64,000 nt of DNA from Acidobacteriota bacterium (GCA_040755995.1 JBFMAF010000003.1:32001-96000), one strand, 5' to 3'. Shown: positions 6,060 through 61,105, numbered from the stretch's first letter. Numbers and translations are program-made. The notes: generated by a model from the letters alone, not told the origin.

Positions 6060-7165
<1,106 letters not shown>

Positions 7166-32790: not shown

Positions 32791-32935
32791 CGTTGTGCCG
32801 TGTGGACCGTGGGCGCTATACTCCTGTGAACGCGCCCTGATCTGGAGGAGGTGGAGATGCGCTGGGATCTGGCCCCGCACATGCTGTCCGTCCCTCCCGC
32901 TGTCGATTCACCTAGCATTCGTATGAGAGGGTACC

Positions 32936-35134: not shown

Positions 35135-35159
35135 CAGCGACTTGCATGGGTGATAGCAT
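35131..35159 (+). promoter_or_regulatory. Putative sigma70 promoter for the 49-aa ORF
   Basis: TTGACA-17 bp-TAGCAT with an extended -10 TG; the -35 overlaps the upstream stop codon. Confidence 0.5.
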
Positions 35160-35177
35160 AAGATGAGGAGATTCTCA

Positions 35178-35327
35178 ATGATTGTTGACTCACGGGATGA
35201 CGGAGGCGGACACGTCAGCTACGATTTTACGATAGAAGCCCCTGAAGAGACCATCGAAGACAGCAGTCTTTATAAGCAGGGATTGGACATAGGCAAGGAC
35301 ATCCGCAGCGAAGTGCCCGAAGAATAG
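35178..35327 (+). CDS. 49-aa acidic small protein (below the ORF-track cutoff)
   Basis: GAGGAG RBS 7 nt before ATG; MIVDSRDDGGGHVSYDFTIEAPEETIEDSSLYKQGLDIGKDIRSEVPEE. Confidence 0.6.
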   Translation: MIVDSRDDGGGHVSYDFTIEAPEETIEDSSLYKQGLDIGKDIRSEVPEE

Positions 35328-35443
35328 GCGGCAGCCAAGCCCGGCAAGCGGACTACGCCTCACCCATCCAGAAGTGAGAACGGGCGGATTGCCCGTTTCT
35401 GACGAGATTCGAGCGGACCACGCACTGGTCCATTCCACGGTCG

Positions 35444-35899
35444 TCACGGGCGCGACTTGCCTCCTGGCCGCTGACGCGATGCGCGAGACCGTGCCAGAGC
35501 GCCCCTGATTCGTCGAACGCAGCGCGACTCGTTCCTGTGCGTGAGTTCGTGCTGCCATATGCGAACGACACGCCATCCCGCCTTCCGCAGCGCACGCGTC
35601 ACGCGCCGGTCCCGGGCTTTGTTGGCCGCCAGCTTCCTCTGCCAGAAGGCGCGATTCGAGTCTGGCAGATGCGAGTGCTCTGGGCAGCAGTGCCAGAAGC
35701 ACCCGTCCACGAATACAGCCACATTACTCCCGGGGAAGACGAAATCGGGTCTGCCGTATAGCGGCCAGCGTCGTCGCCACCCGGAAATCTTGTGGTGTCG
35801 GAACAACCCGATCAATGCGAGTTCGGTCTTCTTGTTGCACCCTCCACGAACGTGGGACATGATCAACGCACGCTTGGCCTTGCTGTAGATGTCTGCCAC
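35444..35899 (-). CDS. vsr: Very short patch repair endonuclease
   Basis: MADIYSKAKR..IMS, GRPDFVF, VFVDGCFWH, FW..K...NKARD, GWRVVRIW. Confidence 0.92.
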   Translation of the reverse strand: MADIYSKAKRALIMSHVRGGCNKKTELALIGLFRHHKISGWRRRWPLYGRPDFVFPGSNVAVFVDGCFWHCCPEHSHLPDSNRAFWQRKLAANKARDRRVTRALRKAGWRVVRIWQHELTHRNESRCVRRIRGALARSRASRQRPGGKSRP

Positions 35900-35913
35900 T
35901 TTCCGTCGACAGT

Positions 35914-36990
35914 CTACGGGGCGAAACTGTGATCCTCTTGGAGCCGTGCTTCCCGGGCTCCGACCCCAGCCAGACGCAGGATTTGCTCTCCGATGGCTTC
36001 GCCTAATTTCACGGGGACCGCATTTCCGATCTGGGCTGCCAACGCTCCCATCGAGGGCCCGTAGAAGATGAAGTCATCCTCGAAAGATTGCAGCCGCGCC
36101 GCCTCCCTTACTGAGATGGCACGGTCCTGTTCAGGGTGTCCATACCTTCCGTTGGAAAGACTGACGCAACGGCATGTGAGCGCAGGCGCTGGCGCGTCCC
36201 AGCGCATCCGGCCGTATACGTCCGTATGACCGTCGTAGTTCTCCGAGTGACAGGGCAAAGCGAGGGAGCGCGGCCAATGCAATCGTCCACCGCCATCCTG
36301 GGGGGTCGCGCGGAGTCGACGGAGGTTGAGATCCGAGAGTCCGGCCGCTCGATGATTGGGAACGGTTGGGTCGGTCGAGCCGGCCTGGATTCTCGGATAG
36401 CCATAGATGGCCTCCCTGACAGTGCAATACGGCAGCCCCCCGGGCCCGTGCGTTCGCGGAGGCAGCGCAGCTTGCACTCCCAGCGCGGCAAGAACCAGCC
36501 AGCGGCAGCGCGTCTGCGGCACGCCGAAGAACTTGGAATCAGATCGACCCTCGGCCACTGAGTAGCCAAGCGACTCGAGGCGGCTCAGTAAGCGCCGGTA
36601 GGTGCTGTTTCCCGGCACCCTCACAATACCGGGTACGTTCTCCACTACCACGAACCGCGGCCTGAACTCGGCGACAAGCGCCGAAAAGGCACCGAGAAGG
36701 GTCCGATCCCGCCTGTCGCCGACCACGCGTCTTTGTTTGCTGAAGGGCTGGCACGGAGCACACGCCGCGAACACCAGCAGGTCGGGCGGGATGCCGTCGA
36801 CGAGCGCCGCGACATCCTGGCGTGTCATCTCCCGGAGATCGCACGCAACGAATCTTGCCGGAGCGTTGTTTTCCTCGTACGTCCGACGACACCCTTCGTC
36901 CACATCTATGCCTGCCACGACCTTGATTCCCACGTTGAGGAATCCTCGTGTCAGCCCGCCTGCGCCGCAAAAAAAGTCCAGAGCGAACAT
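35914..36990 (-). CDS. dcm: C5 DNA cytosine methyltransferase
   Basis: DFFCGAGG, APCQPFS, VENVPG, GVPQTR.R, ISVREAARLQSF, QIGNAVP. Confidence 0.93.
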   Translation of the reverse strand: MFALDFFCGAGGLTRGFLNVGIKVVAGIDVDEGCRRTYEENNAPARFVACDLREMTRQDVAALVDGIPPDLLVFAACAPCQPFSKQRRVVGDRRDRTLLGAFSALVAEFRPRFVVVENVPGIVRVPGNSTYRRLLSRLESLGYSVAEGRSDSKFFGVPQTRCRWLVLAALGVQAALPPRTHGPGGLPYCTVREAIYGYPRIQAGSTDPTVPNHRAAGLSDLNLRRLRATPQDGGGRLHWPRSLALPCHSENYDGHTDVYGRMRWDAPAPALTCRCVSLSNGRYGHPEQDRAISVREAARLQSFEDDFIFYGPSMGALAAQIGNAVPVKLGEAIGEQILRLAGVGAREARLQEDHSFAP

Positions 36991-36998
36991 GAGCCGAG

Positions 36999-38114
36999 TC
37001 AGGCGCCCTTGCCCGCCTTGATCGTCCGAATGATCTTCTCTGTGAAGTCGGCTGCGTTGGTCACGGGCATTGCCGGCCTTCCGCACACTTGTACGTAGGC
37101 CCATGCGAGCTGTTCGCGGAATGGGCTGTCAATGGAGCAGACTCGTACGAAGTCGCGCCCGGCATCCCCGTCTGTTAGGTCGATGGCAGTCAACGGAACC
37201 AGATGAAGATCTTTCAGATCGACCGCCATCAGCGGGATGTGATCCGGGAGGCCCGGGAGGATTCTCACGCCTTCTTGTTGGTCGCGTGTGACCTCCTTCG
37301 GTAGCCTCTCTCGCAACTTCTTCTCAGCCGTCGTGGCGTCAAGACCCACCTTCTTGAGCCACTTCGAGACACGATCGCAGCGGGCAACCAGGGCCTTCTC
37401 GACCGCGCCCTGGCTCACAACCAGGTCGCAGGAAGGCGAAAGAACTACACGAAAGGCGCTTGGCTCGTCCGGGTCTCCCCTCGTTTCCCGCAGTATGTCT
37501 CCAGTCAACAGGTCCGAACTCAGAGGGGGATAGATGTACTGCTCCCAGGCTTGCATCCGCGTGCCCCCGTAGGTCGGCGAGTCAAACGAAGCCGCCAGCC
37601 GCCTGCGAGTGAGACGAACGAGAATATCGCGCCGGTCATTCTCATTCGCCGCCTCCTTCCATACCAGGAGGCTGACATGCCGGAGTGATTCGGCTGCCTT
37701 CATGGCGACTTCATCATTGAATGCACGAAGACTGTCGACATGGGTGCGGTATGATGCCAGCTTGTCAACCACTCGCTCCTGGCTGTCCGCTGTCTTGGGC
37801 TGGAAGCACACGAACGGATGCTGTTGTTTCCCCTCCAGGAACGTAGGCATGTCGCGGGCGCTGTGAACGACGACGGGGCAGAAGTGGACGTCCCAAATGT
37901 GCTCCCAGGTGGCCCCCGCACTTGCCGTCGATCCTGTTTGGTCCTCGAAGACGTCCATGATCACAGCATCGGGTCGCAGCGACTCCACAGTGGTCCTGGC
38001 TTTCTCGAAGCCCGTCCCCTCCACCTTGACGTCGTCCAAACGTGTTTCAAGAACCGACCTCAGACTGTCGATCATGGTGGGGTCGTCCTCGATGATGAGA
38101 ACAGTGAACCTCAT
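36999..38114 (-). CDS. Receiver-domain protein with an uncharacterised C-terminal domain
   Basis: VLIIEDD, VIMDV, VVHSA, QPK receiver motifs; C-terminal LLTGDIL...VVLSPSCDL. Confidence 0.8.
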   Translation of the reverse strand: MRFTVLIIEDDPTMIDSLRSVLETRLDDVKVEGTGFEKARTTVESLRPDAVIMDVFEDQTGSTASAGATWEHIWDVHFCPVVVHSARDMPTFLEGKQQHPFVCFQPKTADSQERVVDKLASYRTHVDSLRAFNDEVAMKAAESLRHVSLLVWKEAANENDRRDILVRLTRRRLAASFDSPTYGGTRMQAWEQYIYPPLSSDLLTGDILRETRGDPDEPSAFRVVLSPSCDLVVSQGAVEKALVARCDRVSKWLKKVGLDATTAEKKLRERLPKEVTRDQQEGVRILPGLPDHIPLMAVDLKDLHLVPLTAIDLTDGDAGRDFVRVCSIDSPFREQLAWAYVQVCGRPAMPVTNAADFTEKIIRTIKAGKGA

Positions 38115-38123
38115 GTCAGTTGG

Positions 38124-40292
38124 TCACCTCGAAGCAATGGGCAGGTCGAACCTGAACGTTGCTCCGCCCAGCTTCCCGGGGCTCTTCACGCCCATCTTTC
38201 CCCCATGACCGAGGATTACTTCCGAGGCTATCGTGAGCCCCATCCCAAAGCCATTGGGGCGTCTCGTGACTCCCGGTAGGAAGATGCGAGTCTGGTCTTC
38301 CCGATCAACGCCCGGCCCCGAATCGTGTAGGAGGCACAGTATCCGCCCCGCCTCCCCTGTCGGCCGGGTTTCGAGAAGAATCCTTCGGGTCCCGTCCTTG
38401 GTGCGTCCCAGCCAGTACAACGTATTGTCGAGCAGGTTGTACAGCACAGTCCACAACTCACCGGGGTCGATCCTGAGCGAGTCAACACCCCTTAGGCTCG
38501 TATCGCACCTGACGCCCAGTTGGCGCAGTTCACCGCCCTTCGCTTCGAGGCATGCAGTCCATATCTCCCGTACAGACGCCTCGCGTTTGCCTCGCGCGAA
38601 GGTGCGACTCGCCAGAGGTCGGAACAACTCTGCCAAGCGACCCAGCGCCTGTACTGCTCGCTCGGCAAGCTCGGTGTGCTTCTGCAAGAGTGTAACATCG
38701 CGATTCGAACCCACGAAGAAGTCACGAACAAGCCGCAGGAACGCCCCGATGATGCTTACATTGTGCCCCACTTCGTGAACGAGTTTCTGAGCGATCGTCC
38801 CGATGCTAGCCAACCGGCTGTAGTAGCTGAACGTGGTCTGCAACTCCTTTTGGATCCGTTCTACCTTGCCGCCATAGTCCGCCAACAAGGGCACCATCTC
38901 GGAGGCAGACCCACCCTCTGCCACGACCTCCCGCGCCTGGGCGAGCAGTGGCTCCGGTGAGAGCTCGCGAAACATGTCGTGCATCGGCTTCTCCTCGGTT
39001 ACCTTGTCCTGGGCCCGTTCGGCCTCAAGGACACTGACCGTGTAGAGCAGCACATGTCGGAATTCCTTCGCCTCGGGTGTGTCAACGAGCCTCTCCCGAT
39101 CGCTCGTGTCCTCGATCTTCGTGTTCACCTCAGCCGAAATCGCAACATAGCCGACTATCTGGCTGGTACTTAGGCGACGCCCAACCAGGCTGACACGCCG
39201 AAGATCAAGGCCGAGCCAGTCCCGGTTCGTCTCGGACTTCGGCAGAACCAGGACCCCATCGCGATACAGAGAGAGACCTTTGAAGGACCGGATCTGACTC
39301 CTGAGATCCGAACGCGAAATGGAGAAGAGCTGTTCAGCCTCTTCGATGCTTTCCTTCTCAAAGTCCCAAGCGCGGACCTCGAAATCGAACGGCCCACACG
39401 TGGGCCTCAGCTCGTCTGCCACCTTGAAGTCGTAGTACCGCTCCAGGTCCGTCCGGATTTCGCGCCACGAGTAAGAGTTCCTCTGACGTGATCTGCCGCG
39501 TCCGTGGTATGGACGGAAAACATACTTGTACGACAGCTTTCCATCCGCCCCGAACTCACCCGTCAGGCGGTAGACCGGCTTGTCCAAGAACTCCGAGGTC
39601 TTGACCTCCATCGGGACCGCTAGCGAGCCGGGAGCCGTGAGGTAGATGGTGAAATCCAGCAGCTTGGAGAACGGTGATACCAAGCGGGAAAGCCCTTCAC
39701 GTAGCTCCTCCACTCGTTCGGGCGTCCACGAGGACTTCAGAAAGATGCGCAGTCTGGTTCCCGATTCGTGGGAGAGGTCCTCAGGTGGGTGTGCAGCACG
39801 GCGTGCAGAACACACGTTGATGTCTTGTGCGTTCGCGAGGTCATCCCATGACACATCCACCTTCCAGCACTGCCCGCCGGCGGTCTTCGTGACAAGTTCC
39901 AGCCGTGTCCCGAGTCTGGCGACCGACAGACGTCCCAGTCCCTTTGCGCCGGTCACGCGTCGCAGTGCATCTCCGCGCCTGGAGTGCTTCGCTGTCAGCC
40001 GGAATGGGGTTGCGACCGTGCACCATACCTCGTCTATGGTCTTGTCGTCCATGCCGTGGCCATTGTCTTCAACTTCGAGCACCGGCCGGCCAGTTTCGTC
40101 CTGGGTGAAGCGCACGTCAACTCTACGCGCGAAAGCGTCGTAAGAGTTCTTCACCTGTTCGATCACGGCAACGACATCGCTTGTGACGAGGTCGGCGCCC
40201 AGAGCAGCGAAGACACGCGGATGCAACTTGAATGGAACGTGAATCCCGGCTGGGCGTTCGCTCTCAGACTTGCTCTGAGATGCCATCTTCAT
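38124..40292 (-). CDS. MORC/MutL-type GHKL ATPase fused to a histidine kinase
   Basis: N-terminal EQVKNSYDA, EDNGHGM, GAKGLGRL; C-terminal HEVGH H-box, NLLDN, HDSGPGV, GFGMGL, GATF. Confidence 0.88.
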   Translation of the reverse strand: MKMASQSKSESERPAGIHVPFKLHPRVFAALGADLVTSDVVAVIEQVKNSYDAFARRVDVRFTQDETGRPVLEVEDNGHGMDDKTIDEVWCTVATPFRLTAKHSRRGDALRRVTGAKGLGRLSVARLGTRLELVTKTAGGQCWKVDVSWDDLANAQDINVCSARRAAHPPEDLSHESGTRLRIFLKSSWTPERVEELREGLSRLVSPFSKLLDFTIYLTAPGSLAVPMEVKTSEFLDKPVYRLTGEFGADGKLSYKYVFRPYHGRGRSRQRNSYSWREIRTDLERYYDFKVADELRPTCGPFDFEVRAWDFEKESIEEAEQLFSISRSDLRSQIRSFKGLSLYRDGVLVLPKSETNRDWLGLDLRRVSLVGRRLSTSQIVGYVAISAEVNTKIEDTSDRERLVDTPEAKEFRHVLLYTVSVLEAERAQDKVTEEKPMHDMFRELSPEPLLAQAREVVAEGGSASEMVPLLADYGGKVERIQKELQTTFSYYSRLASIGTIAQKLVHEVGHNVSIIGAFLRLVRDFFVGSNRDVTLLQKHTELAERAVQALGRLAELFRPLASRTFARGKREASVREIWTACLEAKGGELRQLGVRCDTSLRGVDSLRIDPGELWTVLYNLLDNTLYWLGRTKDGTRRILLETRPTGEAGRILCLLHDSGPGVDREDQTRIFLPGVTRRPNGFGMGLTIASEVILGHGGKMGVKSPGKLGGATFRFDLPIASR

Positions 40293-40362
40293 GGGCGTCC
40301 TACGTTCGACCGGAACTAGCATCAAGAGTATCACGGAGTCCGATGTAGCGACAAGTGTGTCT

Positions 40363-40407: not shown

Positions 40408-41109
40408 TCAGAGAAAAAGCTCCTTCAGTTTCGCATCATCGCGCTTCAGATCATCTGGCGATCCATCGAAGGCCATCTTGCCGAGCTTCATCGAATACAC
40501 CCGGTTGCAGATTCCCAAGACTTGGCGGACTTTCTGCTCAACGACTAGAGTGGTGACTCCGCTCCCGCGGTTGATCTCTGCGATTGTCGCAAAAACGGTT
40601 CTGACAAGATCGGGCGACAGGCCGAGGGATGGTTCGTCAAGCATCAGCAGCTTCGGCTCAGGAACGAGAGCGCGCGACAACGCCAGCATCTGTTGCTGGC
40701 CGCTAGAGAGCCTGCCGGCGTCCTGGTTGATGCGCTCTTTGAGTGTCGGGAAAAGGTCCAACACGTACGCGATGCGTTCTCTGGCTGTCTTTCGTTGAAG
40801 CTGGTACCCCGCGATTTCGAGGTTCTCCATCACCGTTAGGTCGTGGAAGACGCGGCTTCCTTGGGGTGCGTAGACAATCCCGCGAGAGACGTTGTGCGCG
40901 GGCGTAGCACCTGCGGTCGACGACCCGCAAAAACGTATCTCGCCCTTCCATGGCGGAACCAAGCCGCACACGGCTTTCAGCACGGTGGACTTACCCGCCC
41001 CGTTGGGCCCTATGAGCGCTACGACCTCACCCTGACGGACCTCCAAGGACAGACCGAAAAGTACCTGCTTCTTGCCATATCCGGTCTCCAGCCTCCCGAT
41101 TTCCAACAT
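40408..41109 (-). CDS. livF: Liv-type ABC transporter ATP-binding protein
   Basis: GPNGAGKST, LSSGQQQMLA, LDEPSLGLSP, VEQ. Confidence 0.9.
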   Translation of the reverse strand: MLEIGRLETGYGKKQVLFGLSLEVRQGEVVALIGPNGAGKSTVLKAVCGLVPPWKGEIRFCGSSTAGATPAHNVSRGIVYAPQGSRVFHDLTVMENLEIAGYQLQRKTARERIAYVLDLFPTLKERINQDAGRLSSGQQQMLALSRALVPEPKLLMLDEPSLGLSPDLVRTVFATIAEINRGSGVTTLVVEQKVRQVLGICNRVYSMKLGKMAFDGSPDDLKRDDAKLKELFL

Positions 41110-41117: not shown

Positions 41118-41876
41118 TCAGTCTATGTATGCTTCGATGACCCTAGGGTCGTTCCTGACCTCGTCGGGTGGACCCTCGCCTACCATGACGCCCGCGTCCA
41201 TGAAAATAGCCCGGTCGCACACCGTCATCACCGCATCGAGGTTGTGTTCGATGAGGATCACTGACTTGCCTCTCGACGGCAACCCACGGATTGTCGCCAG
41301 GATTCTCTCGGTCATTTCCGGCGCTATCCCAGCGACGGGCTCATCAAGAAGCAGCACCTCGGATCTGGCTGCCAAGCAGCATACAAGGCTCAGGATTTTC
41401 TGCTGTCCATAGGACAGCTCCACTGCCGGGTCACGTGCTTTGTGCGCCAAGCCTGCCTCCTCTAAGAGAGCCAGGGCCTGTTTCCGATGTTCATTCTCTC
41501 GTCCCCGAATGCGCCACCAGTTGAAGAATATGTTCCTCAGCTTCTCACCTGGCTGGTTTTGAAAACACAGTAATACGTTGTCTAGCACGCTAACCTGACG
41601 GATGAGACGAGGATTCTGGAAGGTCCGGCTGATCCCCTGGTTCGTGATGCGGTAGGGTGGAGCACCCGTGATGTCTTTGCCCTTGAAAAGAATCGTTCCG
41701 CGGTCGGGTGCTATGAATCCGGTCACGAGGTTGAAAAAGGTGGTCTTCCCGGCTCCGTTGGGGCCTATGAGTCCCAGTATTTCTCCATGCCGAAGAGAAC
41801 AGGAAAAGCTTGAAAGCGCCTTGACGCCATCGAAACGCTTGTCCACTGCTTGGACATCCAGCACCACTGCGTTCAT
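41118..41876 (-). CDS. livG: Liv-type ABC transporter ATP-binding protein
   Basis: GPNGAGKTT, RTFQ, LSYGQQK, LDEPVAG, IEHN. Confidence 0.9.
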   Translation of the reverse strand: MNAVVLDVQAVDKRFDGVKALSSFSCSLRHGEILGLIGPNGAGKTTFFNLVTGFIAPDRGTILFKGKDITGAPPYRITNQGISRTFQNPRLIRQVSVLDNVLLCFQNQPGEKLRNIFFNWWRIRGRENEHRKQALALLEEAGLAHKARDPAVELSYGQQKILSLVCCLAARSEVLLLDEPVAGIAPEMTERILATIRGLPSRGKSVILIEHNLDAVMTVCDRAIFMDAGVMVGEGPPDEVRNDPRVIEAYID

Positions 41877-42760
41877 CACCGGCCATCCACCCCAGGCAAC
41901 GTATACTCGCCCAGCAGCCCTCGCGGCCGCCACATCATGAACGCGACCAGTAGGCCACCGTAGAGAATCTGCCGGATGTCCGCGGCTGCTGAGCTGGGTA
42001 GCCCTAGAAACCGAATGAGCTCAGGGAGCAGTACCAGCACAGCCGCCCCAACCACGGGCCCCCAAAGGCTGCCGGCCCCGCCGACAATCACGGTGGAGAT
42101 GATGAAGATCGATTCCATAGTCGTGAAGCTGGTAGGATCGACGAAGCTGATATAGTAGGCGTGCATCACTCCCGCCGCAGCAGCCATACCTGCCCCGATG
42201 ATGAAGATTAGCACCTTGTAGGTGGCCACGTTCTTGCCGGCCGCTTGGGCGAAGATCTCATCTTCTCGGATGGCCTTCAGCACACGCCCGAACGGAGAAC
42301 GGACTATCCTCTGGGTCATGCTCAGGGTGATAGCGCAAACGATTCCGACAACTACAAGGAAGCCTACATGTGAGGAAATCGACAAGCCGAATAGCATCGG
42401 CTGAGGAACTCCCGGAAGGCCCATGGGACCACCGGTCAGAGCGACCCAGTTGTTGAAGACGCTGAATGTGATGATCTGGAACGCAAACGTCGCAATCACG
42501 AAGTAGTCATCGCGGATGCGTAGGGATGGGATGCCCACCGTCGCGCCGAGCAGGGCGCCAAGTATGATGGCGCAAACAAGGTTGATCAGGAAGCCACTAT
42601 GTACATTGAGCGCCATGAGCGCTGCAACATAGGCCCCAACACCGTAGAACGCTGCATGCCCGATAGAAAGGAGTCCGGTGTAGCCGGCGATGAGGTTGAG
42701 GGACACCGAGAGGATGACATAGATAGCTGCCAGGATCATGATATGCAGCACGTATTCCAT
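41876..42760 (-). CDS. livM: Liv-type ABC transporter permease
   Basis: GYTGLLSIGHAAFYGVGAY, LTGGPMG, SPFGRVLKAIREDE, RPRGLLG. Confidence 0.9.
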   Translation of the reverse strand: MEYVLHIMILAAIYVILSVSLNLIAGYTGLLSIGHAAFYGVGAYVAALMALNVHSGFLINLVCAIILGALLGATVGIPSLRIRDDYFVIATFAFQIITFSVFNNWVALTGGPMGLPGVPQPMLFGLSISSHVGFLVVVGIVCAITLSMTQRIVRSPFGRVLKAIREDEIFAQAAGKNVATYKVLIFIIGAGMAAAAGVMHAYYISFVDPTSFTTMESIFIISTVIVGGAGSLWGPVVGAAVLVLLPELIRFLGLPSSAAADIRQILYGGLLVAFMMWRPRGLLGEYTLPGVDGR

Positions 42761-42772: not shown

Positions 42773-43657
42773 TCACGCCGACGATTTTCTCAATCGCTTT
42801 CCCAGGATCCCTTGAGGGCGAAGCAGCAAGAAGGCCAACAACAAGAGGAAAGCTGCCGCTTCTTCCCAATGCGTTCCGAGATTCCAGCCAGCAAGCTCCT
42901 CAAGGAAGGCGAGGAGCAGAGACGCTACGGCCACGCCGATGGTCCTCCCGTTTCCGCCCACGACAACAGCCACCACTCCCTGCAACAGCATGGGCAGGCC
43001 CATAATAGGTGTCATCCCCACATCAAACGCTCGAAACAACCCCGTCGCACCTCCCAGGAATGACCCAAGGCAAAACGCAATCCCGATGATCTTGTCGCAG
43101 TCAATCCCGCTTACCCTCGCCAGTTCAGGGCTGTCTGCCACGGCTCTCAGAGCCAATCCGATCCTCATTTTGTCTACGAGAAAAATCTTGACGAACAGAA
43201 CTGCTACCGCGGCTCCCATCACCGCCACCTGGATGCTGGTTACACGGGCCCCCAGAAAGCTGTAAGAAGATGCAACTCCATGACCTGCAATGACCTTGGT
43301 ATCATCACCAAACGCAATCGATATGACGCTCTGAAGGACGGTATAAAGGCCGAGAGAGGCCAGCAACAAGACTAGCGGCGTCGCGCCGTCCCGCCTCAAC
43401 GGTCGGTATACGACCTTGTCAAGACTCCAGCCAAGTCCCGTACTAGCAGCCAGCGCGAGTACAACAGATGGCAAAGCCGACAGGCCGACCCACTGCGAAC
43501 AGGCCAAGCTCACGTACCCGGCGGTCGTGATGACTGCGGCATGGGCGAAATGGAAGAACCTGGCAGTCGAAAATGCTAACGAGAAGCTGATGCCCACCAA
43601 GAAGATGGTGGCAGCTGAGTAGAGGATGTTCGCCAGGAGCTGGGACCCTAGGGCCAC
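42773..43657 (-). CDS. livH: Liv-type ABC transporter permease
   Basis: FHFAHA, IGLALRAVADSPELARVSGI, LRPQGILG. Confidence 0.88.
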   Translation of the reverse strand: MALGSQLLANILYSAATIFLVGISFSLAFSTARFFHFAHAAVITTAGYVSLACSQWVGLSALPSVVLALAASTGLGWSLDKVVYRPLRRDGATPLVLLLASLGLYTVLQSVISIAFGDDTKVIAGHGVASSYSFLGARVTSIQVAVMGAAVAVLFVKIFLVDKMRIGLALRAVADSPELARVSGIDCDKIIGIAFCLGSFLGGATGLFRAFDVGMTPIMGLPMLLQGVVAVVVGGNGRTIGVAVASLLLAFLEELAGWNLGTHWEEAAAFLLLLAFLLLRPQGILGKRLRKSSA

Positions 43658-44922
43658 TTGGTGACACCGTTCAGTAGGTGGTCGACAACCACACCCACCT
43701 GGTCCTTCGGAACTACATACGGGGCCTCCCTACCATCGAGAGCCGAGAGATCGTTCTTGAACTTGCGGCCCCCTTTGTTTTCAGCCTCCTTGATCAGGTC
43801 ACTTGGGGTTGCAAACAACCTGTCGCAGAGCCCAAGCTCCACCGCCTTTTGCAGGTACGCAAAAGGCTTCCACCTTGCGTCGTTATCGTCGACATCCAAC
43901 AGAATCTGGGCCCTTTTCTCCCCGGGATCCCAGGATATCCCTATGCGTGTCCCTTGGACTTCGTAAAGGCCATAGTCGCCCCTTAACGCCTGCCCCAGTT
44001 CCGAGCGCTTGCCTATCTCTTTCAGTTGGGTAGCTTGGTCTGCTCTGTTCTCACCTACTTCGAGCATGCCCGGGTGGGAGAACCACAACTTCGTCCCTTG
44101 GAACTTGCTGAGGAACCTCCTCAATGCTTCGCGAACGTCGATGATACAAGTTCCATCCTGGTTATCGATCATGAGCCAGGCCGGGCTGGTTGTGACCTTG
44201 GCCACTAGCTCGGTAGATATGATGCTTAGCTTGTCCTCAAGGAGGAGTGTGTTGTAGAGGTTTGTGGGGAGATAGACGATGCGCAGAGCAGCGCCCTCAT
44301 AGGTACAGAACGCTGCCCATGGTGCTGGGTCCCCCCCTGTGTGCTCTCCAACAGAATGATAGACTGGTGAGAATGGGCATGTCCAATAGATACGTTCGAA
44401 GAGCTTGCCTTCCATGATGTCTTTGAGAGTTCCCTTGTAGCTATCCTTGTCCATGGCGAACTCCAGCGCGCCAAATGTCGCGCGGCCAAAGGCATGTAGG
44501 CATCGGGCCATCACGTATCGTGTTCGATGTGATCCAGCGCCCCTGACATGTAGCTGACGTAGCAAGCGGCCCAATGGCCTCTCATTGGGTGGTGCAGTGT
44601 CAGTGAGGTACATCAAGAGCGACCACTCTCGCCCAAACCCCGCTGCCACCTCTGCTTGCCAGTGGCTTTCGAGCTCGCGACACGCGCTCTCTGAGACAGC
44701 CCGCGCCAGATGCTTCGCCATCAAGTTGGCCAGTTCGATGACGAGCGTGAGCGCAGCCAATGTGTAGCCGAGTATCGATGCCAGGCGGTCGAATCGACCA
44801 AGATCCGCAAAGGCATCCCAACCGCCGATCACCAGTCCGAAGAAGATTATCAAGAAGGGCAACCAGGGAGAACGGCTCCCGCTCCACCACTCAAACGCGC
44901 GATACAGGTGGTCTTCTCTCAC
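43648..44922 (-). CDS. Hypothetical protein, two N-terminal TM helices plus a soluble domain
   Basis: GAGGAGGGGG RBS before GTG; overlaps both neighbouring genes; no family recognised. Confidence 0.7.
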   Translation of the reverse strand: MREDHLYRAFEWWSGSRSPWLPFLIIFFGLVIGGWDAFADLGRFDRLASILGYTLAALTLVIELANLMAKHLARAVSESACRELESHWQAEVAAGFGREWSLLMYLTDTAPPNERPLGRLLRQLHVRGAGSHRTRYVMARCLHAFGRATFGALEFAMDKDSYKGTLKDIMEGKLFERIYWTCPFSPVYHSVGEHTGGDPAPWAAFCTYEGAALRIVYLPTNLYNTLLLEDKLSIISTELVAKVTTSPAWLMIDNQDGTCIIDVREALRRFLSKFQGTKLWFSHPGMLEVGENRADQATQLKEIGKRSELGQALRGDYGLYEVQGTRIGISWDPGEKRAQILLDVDDNDARWKPFAYLQKAVELGLCDRLFATPSDLIKEAENKGGRKFKNDLSALDGREAPYVVPKDQVGVVVDHLLNGVTKWP

Positions 44923-45751
44923 GACCCCCTCCTCTAGACCCGTGGCTCCGACCGACCGCAGACTTTCTGGCCATCAGAATCGCCGCACTGGAGCGAGCAG
45001 CGTGGAACGCGTTTCCTGACCAGCTGCCCAGAACACAGATGTCGCCCTTGTCGAATCCGACCTGCACGAGCATGGAAGCCAATTCCTCCGCGGTGTACAG
45101 CCGAATCTTGAATGGAAGCTGCGTCACCTCGCTACCCGATTCATATTCGTAACTGCCAACCCACACGTGCCCGTCCTCCACGATCTTGGACCGCTTCCGG
45201 TACCGTAGGTGGTCGGCAAGGCCGCGTTCCTCGTTCAGCCTCCAACGTACCTGCCTCGCCCCGAAATTCACCTGTTCAAGTATGAAATACCCACCCGGCT
45301 CCAAGACCCGGAAAGCTCCTTCCAGTACTGACATATTCTCATCATGATCGGCGAAGTACCCCCACGACGTATCAAGGCACACCGCAAGTCTGTATTCCCT
45401 CGGCGGCCACCTCCAAGTCCGCAAATCCGCGAGTGTCAGCGTCACCTGCTTGCGTGCAGCTGCCGCACGCCGCAGCGCTTCCGAAAGCAATTCCGCCGAT
45501 TGATCAACACCGTGAACCAAGAATCCTTCTCGCGCGAACGCTAAACAGTGTCGGCCGTAACCACACGCGAAATCTATCACCGGGCCAGGAGGGTTGATGC
45601 CGGTCAGGCGCGAGATGCTCCTGGCTTGCATGGCTGCGACACGTCGTGGCTTCCGAATCTGATCGACAAGGGCATACCTGAGATCAAACAGGTCCACATA
45701 CCAATCGTCTGGAACCGATCTCCAGTCATGTTGCCAGTCCAAGGCACTCAT
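44891..45751 (-). CDS. Class I SAM-dependent methyltransferase
   Basis: VIDFACGYGRH, GVDQS, SWGYF, LEPGGYFILE; ATGA overlap with the rSAM stop codon. Confidence 0.88.
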   Translation of the reverse strand: MSALDWQHDWRSVPDDWYVDLFDLRYALVDQIRKPRRVAAMQARSISRLTGINPPGPVIDFACGYGRHCLAFAREGFLVHGVDQSAELLSEALRRAAAARKQVTLTLADLRTWRWPPREYRLAVCLDTSWGYFADHDENMSVLEGAFRVLEPGGYFILEQVNFGARQVRWRLNEERGLADHLRYRKRSKIVEDGHVWVGSYEYESGSEVTQLPFKIRLYTAEELASMLVQVGFDKGDICVLGSWSGNAFHAARSSAAILMARKSAVGRSHGSRGGGRERRPPVSRV

Positions 45752-46938
45752 TGTCGCACACCCAAGTTGAACGGGATGGTGTCACCGCGACGAGTACTCA
45801 CAAGATCAGGTGCCGATGAATGGCAGGTCGAGACCCGGCTGTCTAAGTAGAGGCACCTGTCGATCGTCCCGCTGAGGCATCTCTTGTGCATTGGCCCGCC
45901 GTGACAGAAGGACCACTCCTCGCACTGTGCACAAGGTCCCGTCTTCTTCCACTCGGCACGACGGAACGGTTCGTATCTGCCCTCCCAAACATCCTTGATT
46001 CGCTCACGGCGAAGGTCACCTTGCACGAAGCTACGTGAGATATTGCTGCAGGAGCTGAGTTTGCCATCAAATAGAACTCCAAGGTTGTTAAGCCCCGCAA
46101 TACAGTGAAACACAAAAGGGCGCAGACGGCCCTCCAACTCGGGGCCCATCCATCCGCCGCAGCCCAATTCCACCATGGTCACCGAGGAATCAGAGTAGTT
46201 CGAACACGAGCGCTCGTATTCCTGGCGGAGGAAACCGATGACCTCTCGCACTTGGTTCGCAGTCGGATAGAGATCCGAATTGCCCTGCGCACGTCCCTGC
46301 TTGTCGATGATCATCACCCTGAAGACCCTTGGTCGGATTTCCTGCTTCGCGAAACGATGAAACGCCGGGAGTTCGTGGATGTTCTTGGAGTGGGCCACGA
46401 AGGAGACCGTCACCACGTATCCGGCGTCAACCGCGAGGCGGGCGGCGTCGGTCGCCTTCGCCCACGTTCCTGGTTGGCCCCTCAAGGAATCGTGGCTTGA
46501 CTCAAAGCCATCGATGCTGATCCCCAAGCCGGTTACTCCCAGACTACTCAGTTCCTCGAGCACGCCCGGATTGTCGGAGAGGAAGACGCCATTTGTCTGG
46601 ATGTCGATGTTTCGATAGAAGGGCCAATGCGAGATGGCCCGTAGCACATCAAGGAGATCACGGCGAACGAACGGTTCGCCGCCCGTAATGTTGATGTGCC
46701 GGAACCGGTCCATGTCGAAATCGCGGGCGATCTCATCGAAGGCTCCGACAACTTCGTCGGTGGAGAGTTCGTCTGAGCTACTCACCTCCTCGCCTGGTGA
46801 GCCGCAGTGCAAACATCGCAGGTTGCATCGTCGAGTTGCTTCCCAGCTGATGATCTGGAGGGGGTGCTCCCTTATGAGGGCTTCAATCCGAGTCCTCCAG
46901 GTCTGGAAGAGAGCTCTTAGGTCCTCACCACGATTCAC
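45748..46938 (-). CDS. Radical SAM/SPASM peptide maturase, TIGR04133/splicease-like
   Basis: HPLQIISWEATRRCNLRCLHCGS, ITGGEP, SPASM cysteines CIAG...DG..SSC...CAQC...C.GG.MH.R. Confidence 0.88.
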   Translation of the reverse strand: MNRGEDLRALFQTWRTRIEALIREHPLQIISWEATRRCNLRCLHCGSPGEEVSSSDELSTDEVVGAFDEIARDFDMDRFRHINITGGEPFVRRDLLDVLRAISHWPFYRNIDIQTNGVFLSDNPGVLEELSSLGVTGLGISIDGFESSHDSLRGQPGTWAKATDAARLAVDAGYVVTVSFVAHSKNIHELPAFHRFAKQEIRPRVFRVMIIDKQGRAQGNSDLYPTANQVREVIGFLRQEYERSCSNYSDSSVTMVELGCGGWMGPELEGRLRPFVFHCIAGLNNLGVLFDGKLSSCSNISRSFVQGDLRRERIKDVWEGRYEPFRRAEWKKTGPCAQCEEWSFCHGGPMHKRCLSGTIDRCLYLDSRVSTCHSSAPDLVSTRRGDTIPFNLGVRQ

Positions 46939-47138
46939 TTGGCGAATACCACCTTGAAGTACTCGTTGCCGTCATCATTCGGGTGGCAGCCGTACATGTT
47001 GTTCACGTATTCCACTGGACTGGGCCATTCGAGCATCCGCTTTTTGAACTTGAGCACCTCCTCTTCACTCGCTGCGGGACGTTCACAGGCCTGATGGTCT
47101 TCGACCGCCTGGGATGTACGCCGTATCTCGATCCGCAT
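46935..47138 (-). CDS. 67-aa putative RiPP precursor with an M-Y-G motif
   Basis: AAGGAG RBS; stop codon overlaps the rSAM GTG start (GTGA); contains EYVNNMYGCHP. Confidence 0.72.
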   Translation of the reverse strand: MRIEIRRTSQAVEDHQACERPAASEEEVLKFKKRMLEWPSPVEYVNNMYGCHPNDDGNEYFKVVFAK

Positions 47139-47149
47139 TGGCTATCTCC

Positions 47150-48283
47150 TTAGCTGATGTCGACAGCTTGGCCGTTCTTGATGGTCTTCTTGCCGAAGGC
47201 CTCGGACTTGAGATCACCGTTGGGGCGGAAAGCGACTTCACCCGAAACTCCTTGGAAGGAGATCGCCAACAAGGCTTCGCGCACCTTCTCGGGGTCTGTA
47301 GTGCCAGCGGCCTCCATTGCCTTGAAGATGGCCATCGCTGCGTCGTAGGCATAGCATCCAAACACGTCCGGTTCCTCCCCATACTTGCCCTTGTATCGCC
47401 GGGCGAATTCATCAAATGTGGGGCTCGTACTCCCGGAAGGCGACGTGTAAAAGACACCTTCTGCCCCATCCCCGGCGACATTGCGAAATTCGGGAGACCC
47501 CCAATTGTCGCCTCCGAATAGTGGGACATTTAGGCCGAGTTCCTTCATTTGCCGCACAAACACTCCACCCTCTTTGGGGTAAGTAGGAGAGACTACCGCA
47601 TCAAGCATCTCCATTCCCTTGAGCTTTGCGATGATCGTGCGGAAATCTGCCGTGTTCTCCTGGACGCCTTCTGCATTGATCACCTGTCCGCCCAAGGCTT
47701 GGAATCTCGTCTGAAACCCCTCTGCGAGCGGCTTACCCCATGAGTTGTTCGTATAGACCACCGCGACTCTCCTTGCACCGGACTTGAAGACCCAGCCGCT
47801 CAGCACTTCTGCCTGCAAGTCATCGGCGGGAACGGTCCTGAAAAAGAATTCACCGCCCCGAGTCGAAAGCTGGGAAGATGAGGAAACGGGCGACATGAGA
47901 ACGACCTTGTACCTGGTCGCAAGGGGAGCAACGGCAAGACTCACGCCGCTCCCGGCCGAGCCAAATACGACGGGCACCTTGTCGATGGTGGCGAATTTAG
48001 TCATGATGCTGACCGCCTCTTTCTTGTCGTTGCGGTCATCCTGAAAGTCTACCACGATAGGCTTGCCGAATAGGCCGGCTTTGGCGTTCTGATCCTCCAC
48101 GGCCAACTCAATCCCGCGCTTCGCCTTCTGGCCGTATGAAGCAACCTCGCCAGTGAGGGGGAATGTCGCCCCGAGTTCAATCCTGTTGGAGGAGGGAGCC
48201 CGTGGCCTTGTTACCAGCAAGGCTACGGCGACGACGCCTACTACGAGGATCGCTGCTGCTACCCATCCCTTTCCTACCGTCAT
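47150..48283 (-). CDS. Liv-type ABC transporter substrate-binding protein
   Basis: N-terminal membrane anchor; GATFPLTGEVASYG, FFRTVPADDLQ, YAYDA, FQGVSG. Confidence 0.9.
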   Translation of the reverse strand: MTVGKGWVAAAILVVGVVAVALLVTRPRAPSSNRIELGATFPLTGEVASYGQKAKRGIELAVEDQNAKAGLFGKPIVVDFQDDRNDKKEAVSIMTKFATIDKVPVVFGSAGSGVSLAVAPLATRYKVVLMSPVSSSSQLSTRGGEFFFRTVPADDLQAEVLSGWVFKSGARRVAVVYTNNSWGKPLAEGFQTRFQALGGQVINAEGVQENTADFRTIIAKLKGMEMLDAVVSPTYPKEGGVFVRQMKELGLNVPLFGGDNWGSPEFRNVAGDGAEGVFYTSPSGSTSPTFDEFARRYKGKYGEEPDVFGCYAYDAAMAIFKAMEAAGTTDPEKVREALLAISFQGVSGEVAFRPNGDLKSEAFGKKTIKNGQAVDIS

Positions 48284-54319: not shown

Positions 54320-55654
54320 TTATAGTGCGATGTGGCTGCAACAATCCTGGAGAGATGAAAAAAATACCTGTGCGGCAGATGCTGGGCCTGGGACTGAGCC
54401 CTGGCAGGCTTGCATCTTATTGATAATTCGTCTCGCTGGCTGCGCCAACTGCCGGAGCAGGGCCGTGTTGTGGCACCGGATGCTCTGTGTGTCGGTGGCT
54501 ACTACGCAGGCGTTGCAATTGTCGCATCGGGCGCGGTCGGTCCGGCCGCTGCGGAACTTGTTCGGCAGGTCGGGCTCCAGGATCAGCGGCCTGGCCATAG
54601 AGCAGAAGTCGGTGTGCCCCTGGTCGATGGCGGCCTCCATGAACGCGCGCTCCCGCATCCCCCCGACCGTCACTACCGGCAGCTTGATGCTTCGTTTCAC
54701 TCTTGCGGCCGTCGCCAGGTTGTAGCCTTCGCGGAACCTGGGCTGGAAGAGGCTGGCTGCCGGCATCACTAGGCGCTTCGTGACGAACCGGTACGGTGGC
54801 GACATGTGGCAGAAGGGGCGAAGGTATCGAAGCATCGCGTTTGCCGGGAATGCTCCGCGGGTCATCACGAACCCAGCCTCGTTCGTTCCGCAGCTCAGCT
54901 CGATCGCATCGCAACAGCCGGTCTGTTCGACTCGCCGCGCGGTCTCGACGCACTCATCCGGCGTGATGCCGCCGGAAACGCGCTCCTCTGTGTTCAGCTT
55001 GATCAGCACCGGATAGCCTGGCCCGACTGCATCCCGCACGGCCTTCAGGACATCGCCGACGATTCGGAAGCGGTTGCTCAAGTCTCCGCCCCAGCGATCC
55101 TTGCGCCGGTTCGACCGTCTGGCCAGGAAGGACGACAACAGATACCCGTGGGCACCGTGGACCTGCACGCCGTCGTAGCCGGCATCCTTCGCCCTTCGCG
55201 CCGCGTCGCCGAATCCCCGGACTACCTCGGCGATGTCCGCTTCGGTCATCTCCTCAGGCTTCTCGCCGTAGAACCCGCACGGGATCGCCGAAGGAGCCTT
55301 CAGCGGCTGCCGGGTCTCCGTTGACCAGGTCTGCCGGCCGCAGTGGGCGATCTGCAGCACGATCCGCCCACCGATGGCGTGAAGACGTTCGACCATCTCC
55401 CGGTGAGCAGGCACCAGGTCGTCTGAGTCGATCATGGTCATGCGGTATAGAGCGCTCCGGCCGGCTTGCAGCACTCTGGCGTAGCCGGTGATCACCAAGC
55501 CGATCCCGCCTTCGACGAAGCCCTTGTAGAACCGGAACTGCTCTTCGGTGGGCCGGCCACGCGCGTCGGCCAGGCCCTCGTGCGAGGCTGCCCGGATCAT
55601 CCGGTTGGGCAGCTCATGCCTCCCAATCGCTTTGGGCGAAAACAGGATGGACAT
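54320..55654 (-). CDS. NADH:flavin oxidoreductase (Old Yellow Enzyme-like ene-reductase)
   Basis: LPNRMIRAASHEG, LQIAHCGRQ, VHGAHGYLLSSF, D.WGG...NR, VGGMR, MARPLI.EP; C-terminal CDNCNAC...C. Confidence 0.9.
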   Translation of the reverse strand: MSILFSPKAIGRHELPNRMIRAASHEGLADARGRPTEEQFRFYKGFVEGGIGLVITGYARVLQAGRSALYRMTMIDSDDLVPAHREMVERLHAIGGRIVLQIAHCGRQTWSTETRQPLKAPSAIPCGFYGEKPEEMTEADIAEVVRGFGDAARRAKDAGYDGVQVHGAHGYLLSSFLARRSNRRKDRWGGDLSNRFRIVGDVLKAVRDAVGPGYPVLIKLNTEERVSGGITPDECVETARRVEQTGCCDAIELSCGTNEAGFVMTRGAFPANAMLRYLRPFCHMSPPYRFVTKRLVMPAASLFQPRFREGYNLATAARVKRSIKLPVVTVGGMRERAFMEAAIDQGHTDFCSMARPLILEPDLPNKFRSGRTDRARCDNCNACVVATDTQSIRCHNTALLRQLAQPARRIINKMQACQGSVPGPASAAQVFFSSLQDCCSHIAL

Positions 55655-55674
55655 GGCTCGCTGTCCTCGGTTTC

Positions 55675-56262
55675 CTACTTCTTGGACCGCGCCGCTTTGA
55701 CGAAACGACGATCCCGGGCGCGGAGCCACAGGTAGCAGAGGACTAGCGAGCCCCAGAAATACACGCTCACTATCAGCCAGCCCGTGAAGAAGGGGTGTGA
55801 CCAGAAGGAGTAGAACTGCCCGGCCTCGTACTTGTCCATGGTGCTGGCGATGTTGAACGTGATCTTGCGTGTCGCCAGAACTATGACTCCGATCAGGACG
55901 GCCATGGATATGTACCCGATGCGAACCCAGAGGTCGCGGCCCTGTCTGAGCCAGCGCCTGCCGATCTCGAAACCGATGTAGGCCGGCCCCGCTGTCAGCA
56001 GAAATACCGCGAACGACACCGCAGCTCTCAGCGGGCTGTCGTGCAGGTTGTCCTGCCAGCGCCATAGGAAATTCACTTCCCAGGCGGGCCACCCCATGAA
56101 GAAGTAGAACGGAATTGGAGTAATGAAGAACACGGCAAACAAGAGCACCGTCGTCCGCATGAAGTAGTGGCGGTTCTGGTTGTCGCTCTTGAGCATGTTC
56201 TTGCCGGCTTCCGCAAGCGCTAGCCCGGAAAGCAGGGCGACCGGAACATCAATGGCCAACAT
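55675..56262 (-). CDS. Five-TM membrane protein (paralog A)
   Basis: AAGGAGGTG RBS; AIDVP, GWPAWE, GFEIGRRWL. Confidence 0.75.
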   Translation of the reverse strand: MLAIDVPVALLSGLALAEAGKNMLKSDNQNRHYFMRTTVLLFAVFFITPIPFYFFMGWPAWEVNFLWRWQDNLHDSPLRAAVSFAVFLLTAGPAYIGFEIGRRWLRQGRDLWVRIGYISMAVLIGVIVLATRKITFNIASTMDKYEAGQFYSFWSHPFFTGWLIVSVYFWGSLVLCYLWLRARDRRFVKAARSKK

Positions 56263-57970: not shown

Positions 57971-58455
57971 ACCAATCCCAGCTCTTTTCCAAGGTCGCGC
58001 GCCATGAAGGCGAACTTGTAGACGTAATTGAGGTTGCCGTCGATCTCGACTTCGTTGCGCAGCAGCGAACTCAGGATGTCCTGGTCGCGTGAGAACAGGA
58101 AGGACCTGAGCGCCGGTACGTTCTTGAAGCTGACGCGCACGTCCCAGTCCTCGATTCCATTGGGATGGCGCATGATTCTCTCATTGTCGAACACGACGCC
58201 GCTTCTGACGCGATCGTCTACCGTTCTGAACAGGTACCGCCCGCGGAAACCTTTGATGTTCCTGCGATAGGGCTTCCACAGGCGCAAGAACAGCTGCATG
58301 CCAACCAACAGCAGGTCCACGAAAGCGTCGGTCGCCGCCCCGGAAAGTTGGTCCGAGAGCTGCCTGCAGCCCTGCCTGGCGATACGGTGTCCCAGCTGCT
58401 CGGGCCAGAGATACCGAAATGGACGCCATGACGCAACTCTTGGCCAGAAAGACAT
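57967..58455 (-). CDS. SCP2 (sterol carrier)-like protein
   Basis: YLFRT...VVF...DVRVSFKN...DILSSLLRNEVEIDGNLNYVYKF fits the SCP2 fold pattern; sits between the GRE and its activase. Confidence 0.62.
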   Translation of the reverse strand: MSFWPRVASWRPFRYLWPEQLGHRIARQGCRQLSDQLSGAATDAFVDLLLVGMQLFLRLWKPYRRNIKGFRGRYLFRTVDDRVRSGVVFDNERIMRHPNGIEDWDVRVSFKNVPALRSFLFSRDQDILSSLLRNEVEIDGNLNYVYKFAFMARDLGKELGLV

Positions 58456-58457
58456 GT

Positions 58458-61013: not shown

Positions 61014-61105
61014 GGTTGTCGTCACCTCAAAATGGGTTGCCCTGGGTAACGGGACCTTGCTTCTCCGTCAAGCAAATCCCTGCGCCATTGTCCTTCCGCA
61101 GGTCT

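Follow-up and report, generated by a model that had tools for sequence, protein, structure and literature searches.

A near-invariant Tyr-Gly peptide paired with a radical SAM/SPASM enzyme in Liv-type importer operons: a candidate tyramine-splicing cassette of bacteria and archaea

A stretch of 64,000 nucleotides from an Acidobacteriota bacterium (GCA_040755995.1 JBFMAF010000003.1:32001-96000; called the window below, with positions counted from its first letter) contains a 67-residue open reading frame (ORF) with a single Met-Tyr-Gly motif, directly ahead of a gene for a radical S-adenosylmethionine (SAM) enzyme with a SPASM domain. This locus raises the question of whether the small ORF is a gene, whether its product is the substrate of the enzyme and, if so, what happens to the tyrosine. 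An initial annotation, made from the DNA sequence, had proposed a tyramine-excising (spliceotide) system of peptides made on ribosomes and modified after translation (RiPPs), in which a splicease-like radical SAM enzyme and a methyltransferase act on the peptide. Our analysis shows that this gene pair forms the invariant core of a cassette that is widespread and unnamed. It further suggests, with a probability of roughly 0.85, that the enzyme acts on the peptide and has Tyr49 as its target, and gives tyramine excision at Tyr49 by the cassette enzyme, on analogy with the spliceases, about an even chance.

The peptide gene lies on the minus strand at 46935..47138, and the 67-residue ORF, its AAGGAG ribosome-binding site (47146..47151, minus strand, as read from the sequence) and the run N-N-M48-Y49-G50-C-H-P are all found at the positions that had been claimed for them. 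The ribosome-binding site is located 7 bases 5' of the ATG, in overlap with the TAA that ends the preceding gene, which encodes a binding protein; the x-Tyr-Gly site M48-Y49-G50 is encoded at 46989..46997 (minus strand). The TGA stop of the peptide gene overlaps the GTG start (GTGA) of the gene for the 396-residue radical SAM/SPASM enzyme (45748..46938, minus strand; Pfam Radical_SAM 71.8 bits, SPASM 34.4 bits), and the stop of the enzyme gene overlaps the ATG (ATGA) of a gene for a 286-residue class I SAM methyltransferase (44891..45751, minus strand; Pfam Methyltransf_25 55.7 bits). Both overlaps had been noted and are confirmed, and the peptide, radical SAM/SPASM and methyltransferase genes are translationally coupled. 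The cassette occurs in one copy in the window's genome, and the peptide was not found in any of 60 sampled relatives (2 of the same family and 58 of the same phylum). Between 39000 and 51000, Rfam gave no riboswitch and a single sub-threshold small RNA match, and promoter and terminator scans of the locus were at chance level.

The 67-residue ORF is a real gene under strong purifying selection. A search of 5.8 billion proteins returned 136 relatives of the peptide, 36-118 residues in length, and VNNMYG is present in all 120 of the homologues listed, followed by CHP in 106, SHP in 12, AHP in 1 and CHT in 1. In some members Ser, Ala or Thr stands in place of the cysteine after the glycine, and His52 is kept. 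An alignment of 40 sequences shows variability in the N-terminal ~27 residues and near-invariance in the ~40 at the C-terminal end, with R34, M35, P41, V42, E43, V45, N46, N47, M48, Y49, G50, H52, Y60, F61 and F65 identical throughout. A profile search of 1.84 billion representatives recovered 58 members (47 at E <=1e-10), clustered at 50% identity and nearly all 42-95 residues long. The 21 most divergent members all keep N-P-V-E-x-V-N-N-(M, L or I)-Y-G-x-H, with M before Y-G in 18, L in 2 and I in 1. At the nucleotide level, a block of 23 codons compared across 76 distinct DNAs (2850 pairs) has a proportion of synonymous differences (pS) of 0.94, which is saturated, a proportion of nonsynonymous differences (pN) of 0.144 and a pN/pS of 0.15. 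Tyr-Gly, which had been put forward as the conserved core of the small ORF next to the enzyme gene, is invariant across the homologues, in the listed (120/120) and the divergent (21/21) sets alike.

A few longer proteins carry the peptide sequence as well. A search for fused forms found one protein of 158 residues, on a contig of 783 bases. In P0162 (247 residues) and P0164 (193 residues) the peptide module is joined to a domain with an R-H-G/A motif, the module being at the C-terminal end of one protein and at the N-terminal end of the other, and P0162 has a weak match to histidine-phosphatase-type families (E about 5e-4). The two could be true fusions or the result of gene-calling read-through. 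P0165 (78 residues) contains a degenerate extra copy of N-P-V-E-x-V-N-N-M, lacking Y-G, before the intact copy.

The peptide gene is located directly 5' of the enzyme gene in all 21 genome loci. Eleven of these are bacterial (Sedimentisphaerales, Thermoguttaceae, Phycisphaerae, a deltaproteobacterium, Zixiibacteriota, Cloacimonadales, Thermodesulfovibrionia, Armatimonadota, two Bacteroidetes and one unclassified) and 10 are archaeal (Woese-, Pace-, Nano- and Iainarchaeota, Methanosarcinales and one unclassified), so that the cassette spans at least 7 bacterial groups as well as DPANN and other archaea. A metagenome scan added 80 loci, and merging of identical gene ends gave 86 distinct loci out of 101. 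Of these, 80 loci extend for 400 bases or more downstream. The enzyme gene is adjacent and downstream in 77 of them and lies upstream of the peptide gene instead in one more (L107), bringing the adjacent pairs to 78/80. The offsets between the two genes, as determined by tblastn, are 0-57 bases in nearly all loci.

The enzyme can be placed by its motifs, by its match to curated families and by phylogeny. Both motif blocks named in the initial annotation are present, EHPLQIISWEATRRCNLRCLHCGS at the N terminus and GCGGWMGPELEGRLRPFVFHCIAG in the SPASM region. The CX3CX2C motif consists of C38, C42 and C45, all invariant in 21 sequences, and seven more cysteines (C260, C279, C297, C336, C339, C345 and C362) are invariant in the same set. 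The best NCBIfam match is to TIGR04133, with 217.7 bits against a cut-off of 425, followed by TIGR03913 (100.7 bits, cut-off 591.75), MftC (95.9 bits, cut-off 265), PqqE (87.8 bits, cut-off 381) and TIGR04103 (84.3 bits, cut-off 725), the last of which is the PlpX class as described in PMC11002830. Against TIGR04133, the four other cassette enzymes that were tested reach 220.7-228.6 bits, compared with 516-591 bits for its true members, which occur in 3/301 genomes of one Bacteroidota-type phylum sample. The assignment to the TIGR04133 group therefore stands as the best curated match and falls short as membership.

Phylogenetic analysis with IQ-TREE covered 36 rows, made up of 14 of the 22 cassette enzymes (8 were left out), 6 TIGR04133, 1 TIGR04103 and 3 TIGR03913-like sequences, 2 intermediates and 10 outgroups, none of them an experimentally verified splicease. 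The cassette enzymes form a clade (support 99/99), as do the TIGR04133 enzymes (100/100), and the two clades are sisters (93/84). The enzyme is the founder of an unnamed family, sister to TIGR04133. When all 26 Y-G-associated enzymes were constrained to be separate from the 10 outgroups, the log-likelihood rose by 2.4 over the free search (p value of the approximately unbiased test, 0.61). A single clade of all Y-G families, including the PlpX class, is not rejected; it is allowed, and unproven. In addition, four residues (E33, S47, G262 and D291) are common to all Y-G enzyme families and rare in the 10 outgroups. Two Bacteroidota radical SAM/SPASM enzymes are intermediate between the families: that of L029 (1465-2529) scores 217 bits to TIGR04103, 198 to TIGR03913 and 184 to TIGR04133, above other families, and that of L030 likewise has near-equal scores to the three. 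L029 has a methyltransferase-like ORF downstream, and no Y-G partner was seen in its 100-residue upstream ORF.

Tyr-Gly motifs are also found in the partners of the related enzymes. Beside true TIGR04133 members lie TIGR04134 lipoproteins with the motifs I-C-M-Y-G-T-P, I-C-M-Y-G-V-P, P-C-E-Y-G-S-P, S-C-Y-G-M-P and C-A-Y-G-P-P, and the lipoproteins of L026 and L037 match TIGR04134 with 87.8 and 43.7 bits (cut-off 39.8). The initial statement that TIGR04133 enzymes are usually partnered by YG-containing lipoproteins is borne out by these neighbours, which adjoin true members and carry x-Y-G-x-P. The TIGR04103 enzyme of a Nostoc plasmid is flanked by a Nif11 precursor ending in L-Y-G-L-P and by a 71-residue Y-like ORF, and Azospirillum TIGR03913 enzymes come after three DUF1843 peptides, two of them with an N-terminal x-Y-G.

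Tyramine excision, the loss of C8H9NO (135.06 Da) at a tyrosine, is the sole chemistry known to us for SPASM enzymes acting on x-Tyr-Gly sites. As described in PMC11414181, PMC9811515, PMC10533398 and PMC11626197, the reaction converts the x-Y-G site to an alpha-keto-beta-amino amide. In the PlpX and Rheinheimera spliceases the natural x is Met or Leu, according to PMC10533398 and PMC11626197. The restriction of x to M, L and I in the cassette peptides, which includes these natural splicease residues, is counted here in favor of splicing.

How might the enzyme recognize its substrate? The peptide has no Pfam or NCBIfam match and is therefore without a Nif11 or NHLP leader. It also lacks a lipobox and a TIGR04134 match, and no PqqD/RRE gene or domain was found with Pfam and NCBIfam at the locus or in the annotated neighborhoods. 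The absence of a Nif11 leader and of a PqqD/RRE helper had been pointed out from the outset and holds, as does the remark that this precursor architecture is not a recognized one: no curated Pfam or NCBIfam model covers the peptide. AlphaFold2 does not predict the peptide alone to fold (overall predicted local distance difference test score, pLDDT, 57.6). The best block is a predicted amphipathic helix at residues 23-37 (the K-F-K-K-R-M-L-E-W region, 47028..47072, minus strand; pLDDT about 67-75), which is followed by a loop holding M-Y-G. This helix may be the recognition handle for the enzyme, since the leader helix of the binary spliceases, which are described as working without a Y protein, has such a role (PMC11414181).

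We propose that the enzyme, which has neither an RRE domain nor a Y-type helper, most likely grips helix 23-37 of the peptide, and that this would set the loop N-N-M48-Y49-G50-x-H52-P in the active site, where a 5'-deoxyadenosyl radical would attack Tyr49. The most probable outcome would be splicease-type tyramine excision, which would convert the site to an alpha-keto-beta-methionine amide. Methylation might follow, through the class I methyltransferase in the window and through a B12-radical SAM enzyme in half of the other loci; many loci would have no such step.

Several observations weigh against this reading. The enzyme scores below every curated NCBIfam cut-off, including, by a wide margin, those of TIGR03913 and TIGR04103, and the tree places it outside the clade formed by TIGR04103, the TIGR03913-like enzymes and the intermediates (98/96); the splicease membership implied by the initial annotation is therefore not demonstrated. 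The deeper branches of the tree have a support of just 38-52. The literature searched gave no experimental result or published function for TIGR04133, so that the sister family has no proven chemistry to lend. The proline is at +3 from the glycine in the cassette peptides, versus +2 in the TIGR04134 partners and the Nostoc precursor. Forty near-invariant residues across two domains of life are unlike the usual RiPP cores and recall PqqA and MftA, and no conserved protease or exporter was seen in the annotated cassette neighborhoods. Two of the 80 testable loci (L084 and L122) have no enzyme gene on either side within 7 kb, and a further locus (L117) has none in its 7 kb upstream and 3.1 kb downstream flanks. 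Finally, the pairwise identities of the enzyme and of the upstream binding protein are uncorrelated over 36 loci (rho 0.12, reached by 180/2000 permutations), with most pairs in a narrow band of 60-70%.

The 40-residue invariance, together with deep branches that the tree leaves undecided, also allows for a different tyrosine chemistry on the same peptide-enzyme pair, a possibility that we hold to be less likely than splicing. Here a C-C or C-O bond would join Tyr49 to another residue in the manner of PqqE, MftC or cyclophane enzymes, with His52 and Glu43 as conceivable partners, or Tyr49 would be oxidatively tailored; the pair would then yield a cross-linked small protein or a precursor from which a cofactor-like molecule is made. 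The enzyme scores to PqqE and MftC much as it does to TIGR04103, and both of these act on the tyrosine of a short conserved peptide; its closest solved chain is PqqE (6c8v, 51.7 bits). E43, Y49 and H52 are invariant in the 40-sequence alignment, and 40 conserved residues are closer to cofactor precursors than to antibiotic cores. The mycofactocin (MftA/B/C) and pyrroloquinoline quinone (PQQ; PqqA/D/E) systems resemble the cassette in having a short conserved peptide with a reactive tyrosine beside a SPASM enzyme, and in that the product need not be secreted. They differ in that the cassette tyrosine is internal and followed by glycine, and in that the enzyme falls under the MftC and PqqE cut-offs. 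Moreover, no MftB, PqqD or downstream mycofactocin or PQQ gene was found among the 148 neighboring ORFs scanned, and no PqqB/C/D/F or MftB/D/E-type gene is present in any annotated neighborhood. The families nearest to the enzyme by score and by tree all have x-Y-G partners, and the limitation of x to M, L or I is relevant to splicing and has no obvious role in a cross-link of the tyrosine side chain. A thioether of the sactipeptide or ranthipeptide type was also considered and ruled out; such a cross-link is unlikely because Cys51 is Ser or Ala in 13/120 homologues.

With tyramine excision kept as the preferred reading, the cassette can be set beside the known Tyr-Gly systems. It resembles the spliceotides (PlpX/PlpY/PlpA; RhaX/RhaA, RcsX and RasX) in having a SPASM enzyme beside a precursor with x-Tyr-Gly, x being Met or Leu, and it resembles the binary spliceases, as they are described in PMC11414181 and PMC11626197, in having no separate RRE and a helix N-terminal to the site as a possible handle. 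Unlike the spliceotides, the cassette precursor has no Nif11/NHLP leader or Gly-Gly cleavage site, is near-invariant over 40 residues instead of having a variable core, and is encoded inside an ABC importer operon and also in DPANN archaea; its chemistry is one that we infer. The TIGR04133/TIGR04134 pair (Bacteroidota, Treponema) is the nearest by score and tree; its substrate gene is likewise directly upstream and overlapping, and neither enzyme has an RRE. The cassette partner, however, is a cytoplasmic 67-residue peptide and not a lipoprotein, and the genomic context is another.

In the TIGR03913/DUF1843 loci, too, small peptides, some with x-Y-G, adjoin a SPASM enzyme, but each locus has several peptide genes, the Y-G occupies an N-terminal position and the enzymes, at 474-518 residues, are longer. 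On two Azospirillum plasmids (L039 1531-5909 and L041 540-3909) the DUF1843 peptides and the TIGR03913 maturase are followed by an extracellular solute-binding protein, with a PotA-type ABC ATPase after it in L039. This is a second Y-G-peptide/radical SAM cassette adjoining an ABC importer. On an Aureibacter plasmid (L044 644-3414), three DUF1843 peptides, a 474-residue radical SAM enzyme and a class I SAM methyltransferase are encoded in a row. An attached importer or methyltransferase is not unique to the present cassette, since these TIGR03913-type loci of Azospirillum and Aureibacter have them.

The genes around the pair belong to a Liv-type importer operon, a context that the initial annotation overlooked. 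In the window, a minus-strand gene string without intergenic gaps begins with a Liv/HAAT-type substrate-binding protein (47150..48283; Pfam Peripla_BP_6 194.6 bits) and continues through the peptide, enzyme and methyltransferase genes to a 424-residue protein with two N-terminal transmembrane helices (43648..44922, minus strand), which matches no Pfam or NCBIfam family. It is completed by a LivH-type permease (42773..43657, minus strand; BPD_transp_2 97.6 bits), a LivM-type permease (41876..42760, minus strand; BPD_transp_2 162.4 bits), a LivG-type ATPase (41118..41933, minus strand; ABC_tran 108 bits, BCA_ABC_TP_C 34.3 bits) and, as the last gene, a LivF-type ATPase (40408..41109, minus strand; ABC_tran 110.4 bits). 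The HAAT importer set is complete, with Peripla_BP_6, two BPD_transp_2 and two ABC_tran genes in one operon. Bacterial loci begin with the binding protein, followed by the peptide and the enzyme; after these come a variable protein, in many cases a B12-radical SAM enzyme, and then livH, livM, livG and livF. A binding protein is encoded upstream in 43, an Lrp/AsnC-type regulator in 15 and neither in 4 of the 62 loci that extend for 1.1 kb or more on that side; the 15 regulators are divergent, of the archaeal type and with a double winged helix. Liv permeases are found downstream in 25 of the 26 binding-protein-type loci with at least 4.6 kb downstream.

The binding protein has an N-terminal hydrophobic signal or anchor, and its nearest solved chains are amino-acid binders (4gnr, 3td9 and 3ipc, 143-149 bits). 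It is 50-88% identical to the gene product at the same position in other cassettes, across phyla, whereas its best match is 22% identical in its own genome and at most 38% identical in the 60 sampled relatives. By these identities the binding protein is taken to be a cassette-specific orthologue, and the whole operon looks acquired.

The cassette product probably serves amino-acid-linked physiology and is not a secreted antibiotic, in view of the Liv-type importer in bacteria and the Lrp/AsnC-type regulators in archaea, both of which are context only. Native products and natural roles of spliceotides are, to our knowledge, still unknown. The cassette stands apart from the known spliceotides in its near-invariant peptide and in the lack of genes for leader cleavage or export. 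It is fixed in an amino-acid-type importer operon in at least 7 bacterial groups, and DPANN archaea, with their reduced genomes, retain it next to Lrp-type regulators. This invariance, the absence of export genes and the importer and Lrp contexts point to a physiological function.

A more specific proposal, that the modified peptide is a conserved intracellular effector of amino-acid physiology, is speculative and in our view unlikely. Splicing at Tyr49 would give an internal alpha-ketoamide, with an electrophilic carbonyl akin to a pyruvoyl group. This might act as a protein-derived cofactor on amino acids or amines delivered by the Liv-type importer, or the peptide might be a ligand or switch that ties the importer in bacteria, and the Lrp-type regulators in archaea, to the state of the cell. 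If true, this would be the first physiological role for tyramine splicing, common to bacteria and DPANN archaea.

We regard it as quite improbable that the peptide is not a substrate at all and instead serves the Liv-type transporter or the Lrp-type regulators as a small accessory or regulatory protein, an imported small molecule being what the radical SAM and B12-radical SAM enzymes and the methyltransferase act on. The binding protein is conserved much as the enzyme is (mean identity 0.64 versus 0.66), and the peptide gene of L122 is solitary. L084, an archaeal metagenome contig, fits such a role as well: in the region 5862-12998 the peptide gene, at 6956-7135, is placed between a pair of Lrp/AsnC-type double-HTH regulators and a pair of Peripla_BP_6 binding proteins; a Liv permease comes further along, and 7 kb in both directions contain no radical SAM gene. 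Against this, the enzyme gene is adjacent and translationally coupled in 78/80 loci, the archaeal loci are mostly without a transporter, the nearest families of the enzyme are maturases of peptides or proteins with Y-G partners, and the peptide alone is not predicted to fold. In L117 (4517-8318), the peptide gene is surrounded by genes for a class I methyltransferase, an Fe-hydrogenase-like protein and a putative metallopeptidase (DUF4344).

The methyltransferase had been described as attached to the pair; by its distribution it is not a defining partner. In the 40 loci with at least 4.6 kb downstream, a class I methyltransferase is found in just 6, a B12-radical SAM enzyme in 20, either of them in 23 and neither in 17. 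The class I methyltransferase is an accessory tailoring gene. The recurrence of the B12-radical SAM gene, like the occurrence of the cassette in archaea, had been overlooked. The bacterial and archaeal B12-radical SAM enzymes are homologous (22-28% identity), and their likeness to class B methylases is generic only. The methyltransferase of the window is of a generic class I fold, with the daptide methyltransferase NF041820 as its best NCBIfam match (49 bits, cut-off 175), and it corresponds to the methyltransferase module of fusion proteins of 875-904 residues in L004 and L007 (hhalign 97.4%, 250 columns). L052 has the exact architecture of the window, with a methyltransferase 60% identical and a 424-residue protein 48% identical to those of the window.

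The slot after the enzyme is filled elsewhere by unrelated proteins, which have in common just 2-4 N-terminal transmembrane helices. The 424-residue protein has hydropathy segments at residues 20-39 and 47-65 and two homologues besides itself in 5.8 billion proteins. Its comparison with the slot proteins of other loci by hhalign gave 5% or less, its matches in the Atlas are to hypothetical clusters only (<=0.87; pLDDT 0.39), and HExxH and GxSxG motifs are absent from it. The slot protein of L005 matches only unnamed Atlas clusters.

In archaea and anaerobic bacteria, a B12-radical SAM gene repeatedly comes after the SPASM gene (20/40 loci). This also recalls the gms and gmm genes, for which PMC11214058 describes this arrangement, with a COG4001 domain in the Gms homologues. 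As with Gms/Gmm (PMC11214058), genes for a SPASM/Twitch radical SAM enzyme and for a B12-radical SAM methylase are clustered in anaerobes. A lipid-modifying pair of this kind, consisting of a glycerol monoalkyl glycerol tetraether (GMGT) synthase and a B12-radical SAM methylase next to an incidental small ORF, is nevertheless very unlikely. The cassette enzyme has Radical_SAM and SPASM domains only, without COG4001 or another additional Gms-type domain, and its match to Tes (61.9 bits) covers the N-terminal domain alone. Half of the loci lack the B12 enzyme and all keep the peptide, which is under strong purifying selection. That the small ORF is a chance reading frame beside an orphan enzyme has nothing but its size in its favor and is refuted by conservation (136 homologues, 58 representatives at 50% identity, pN/pS 0.15) and by the ribosome-binding site and coupled stop and start codons.

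No curated NCBIfam or Pfam family covers the enzyme, which is below all cut-offs, or the peptide, which has no match. A search of the literature by motif and family names gave nothing relevant, and the survey of Scott et al. 2022 may list the family. According to PMC10849128 and PMC10533398, that survey mined reference proteomes for SPASM enzymes with Y-G-rich neighbors in 189 bacterial genera, with 27 pairs verified and 939 predicted; PMC11626197 describes a Y-G/SPASM survey that covers bacterial and archaeal genomes. What appears to be new here is the enzyme clade, the precursor family and the operon context, the chemistry being a proposed one. The cassette offers a simple two-gene test system. 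If splicing is true, the reaction reaches a new enzyme clade, a new precursor family and the archaea, and if another chemistry is true, the tyrosine of a peptide that is conserved in two domains of life would undergo a modification of a new kind.

Mobile or conflict genes, namely those for an RHS/HINT pretoxin, a zeta toxin, a DDE transposase and AbiEii, flank other cassettes (L001 24-2888; L002 2488-3078; L006 2737-4341; L017 3184-4083), which fits with horizontal spread. In the window, the stretch just past livF (31987-40334) contains a protein with two HATPase domains (38124-40334), a C-5 cytosine DNA methylase (35914-37104), a 732-residue Metallophos protein (32936-35134) and a DUF6119 fragment (31987-32583), and may be a defense or mobile island beside the acquired operon. 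On the other side, a glycyl radical enzyme (PFL-like 509.8 bits, with Gly_radical) and its radical SAM activase are encoded at 56960-61025 (minus strand), and an Old Yellow Enzyme-type flavoprotein at 54320-56092; these genes indicate an anaerobic lifestyle.

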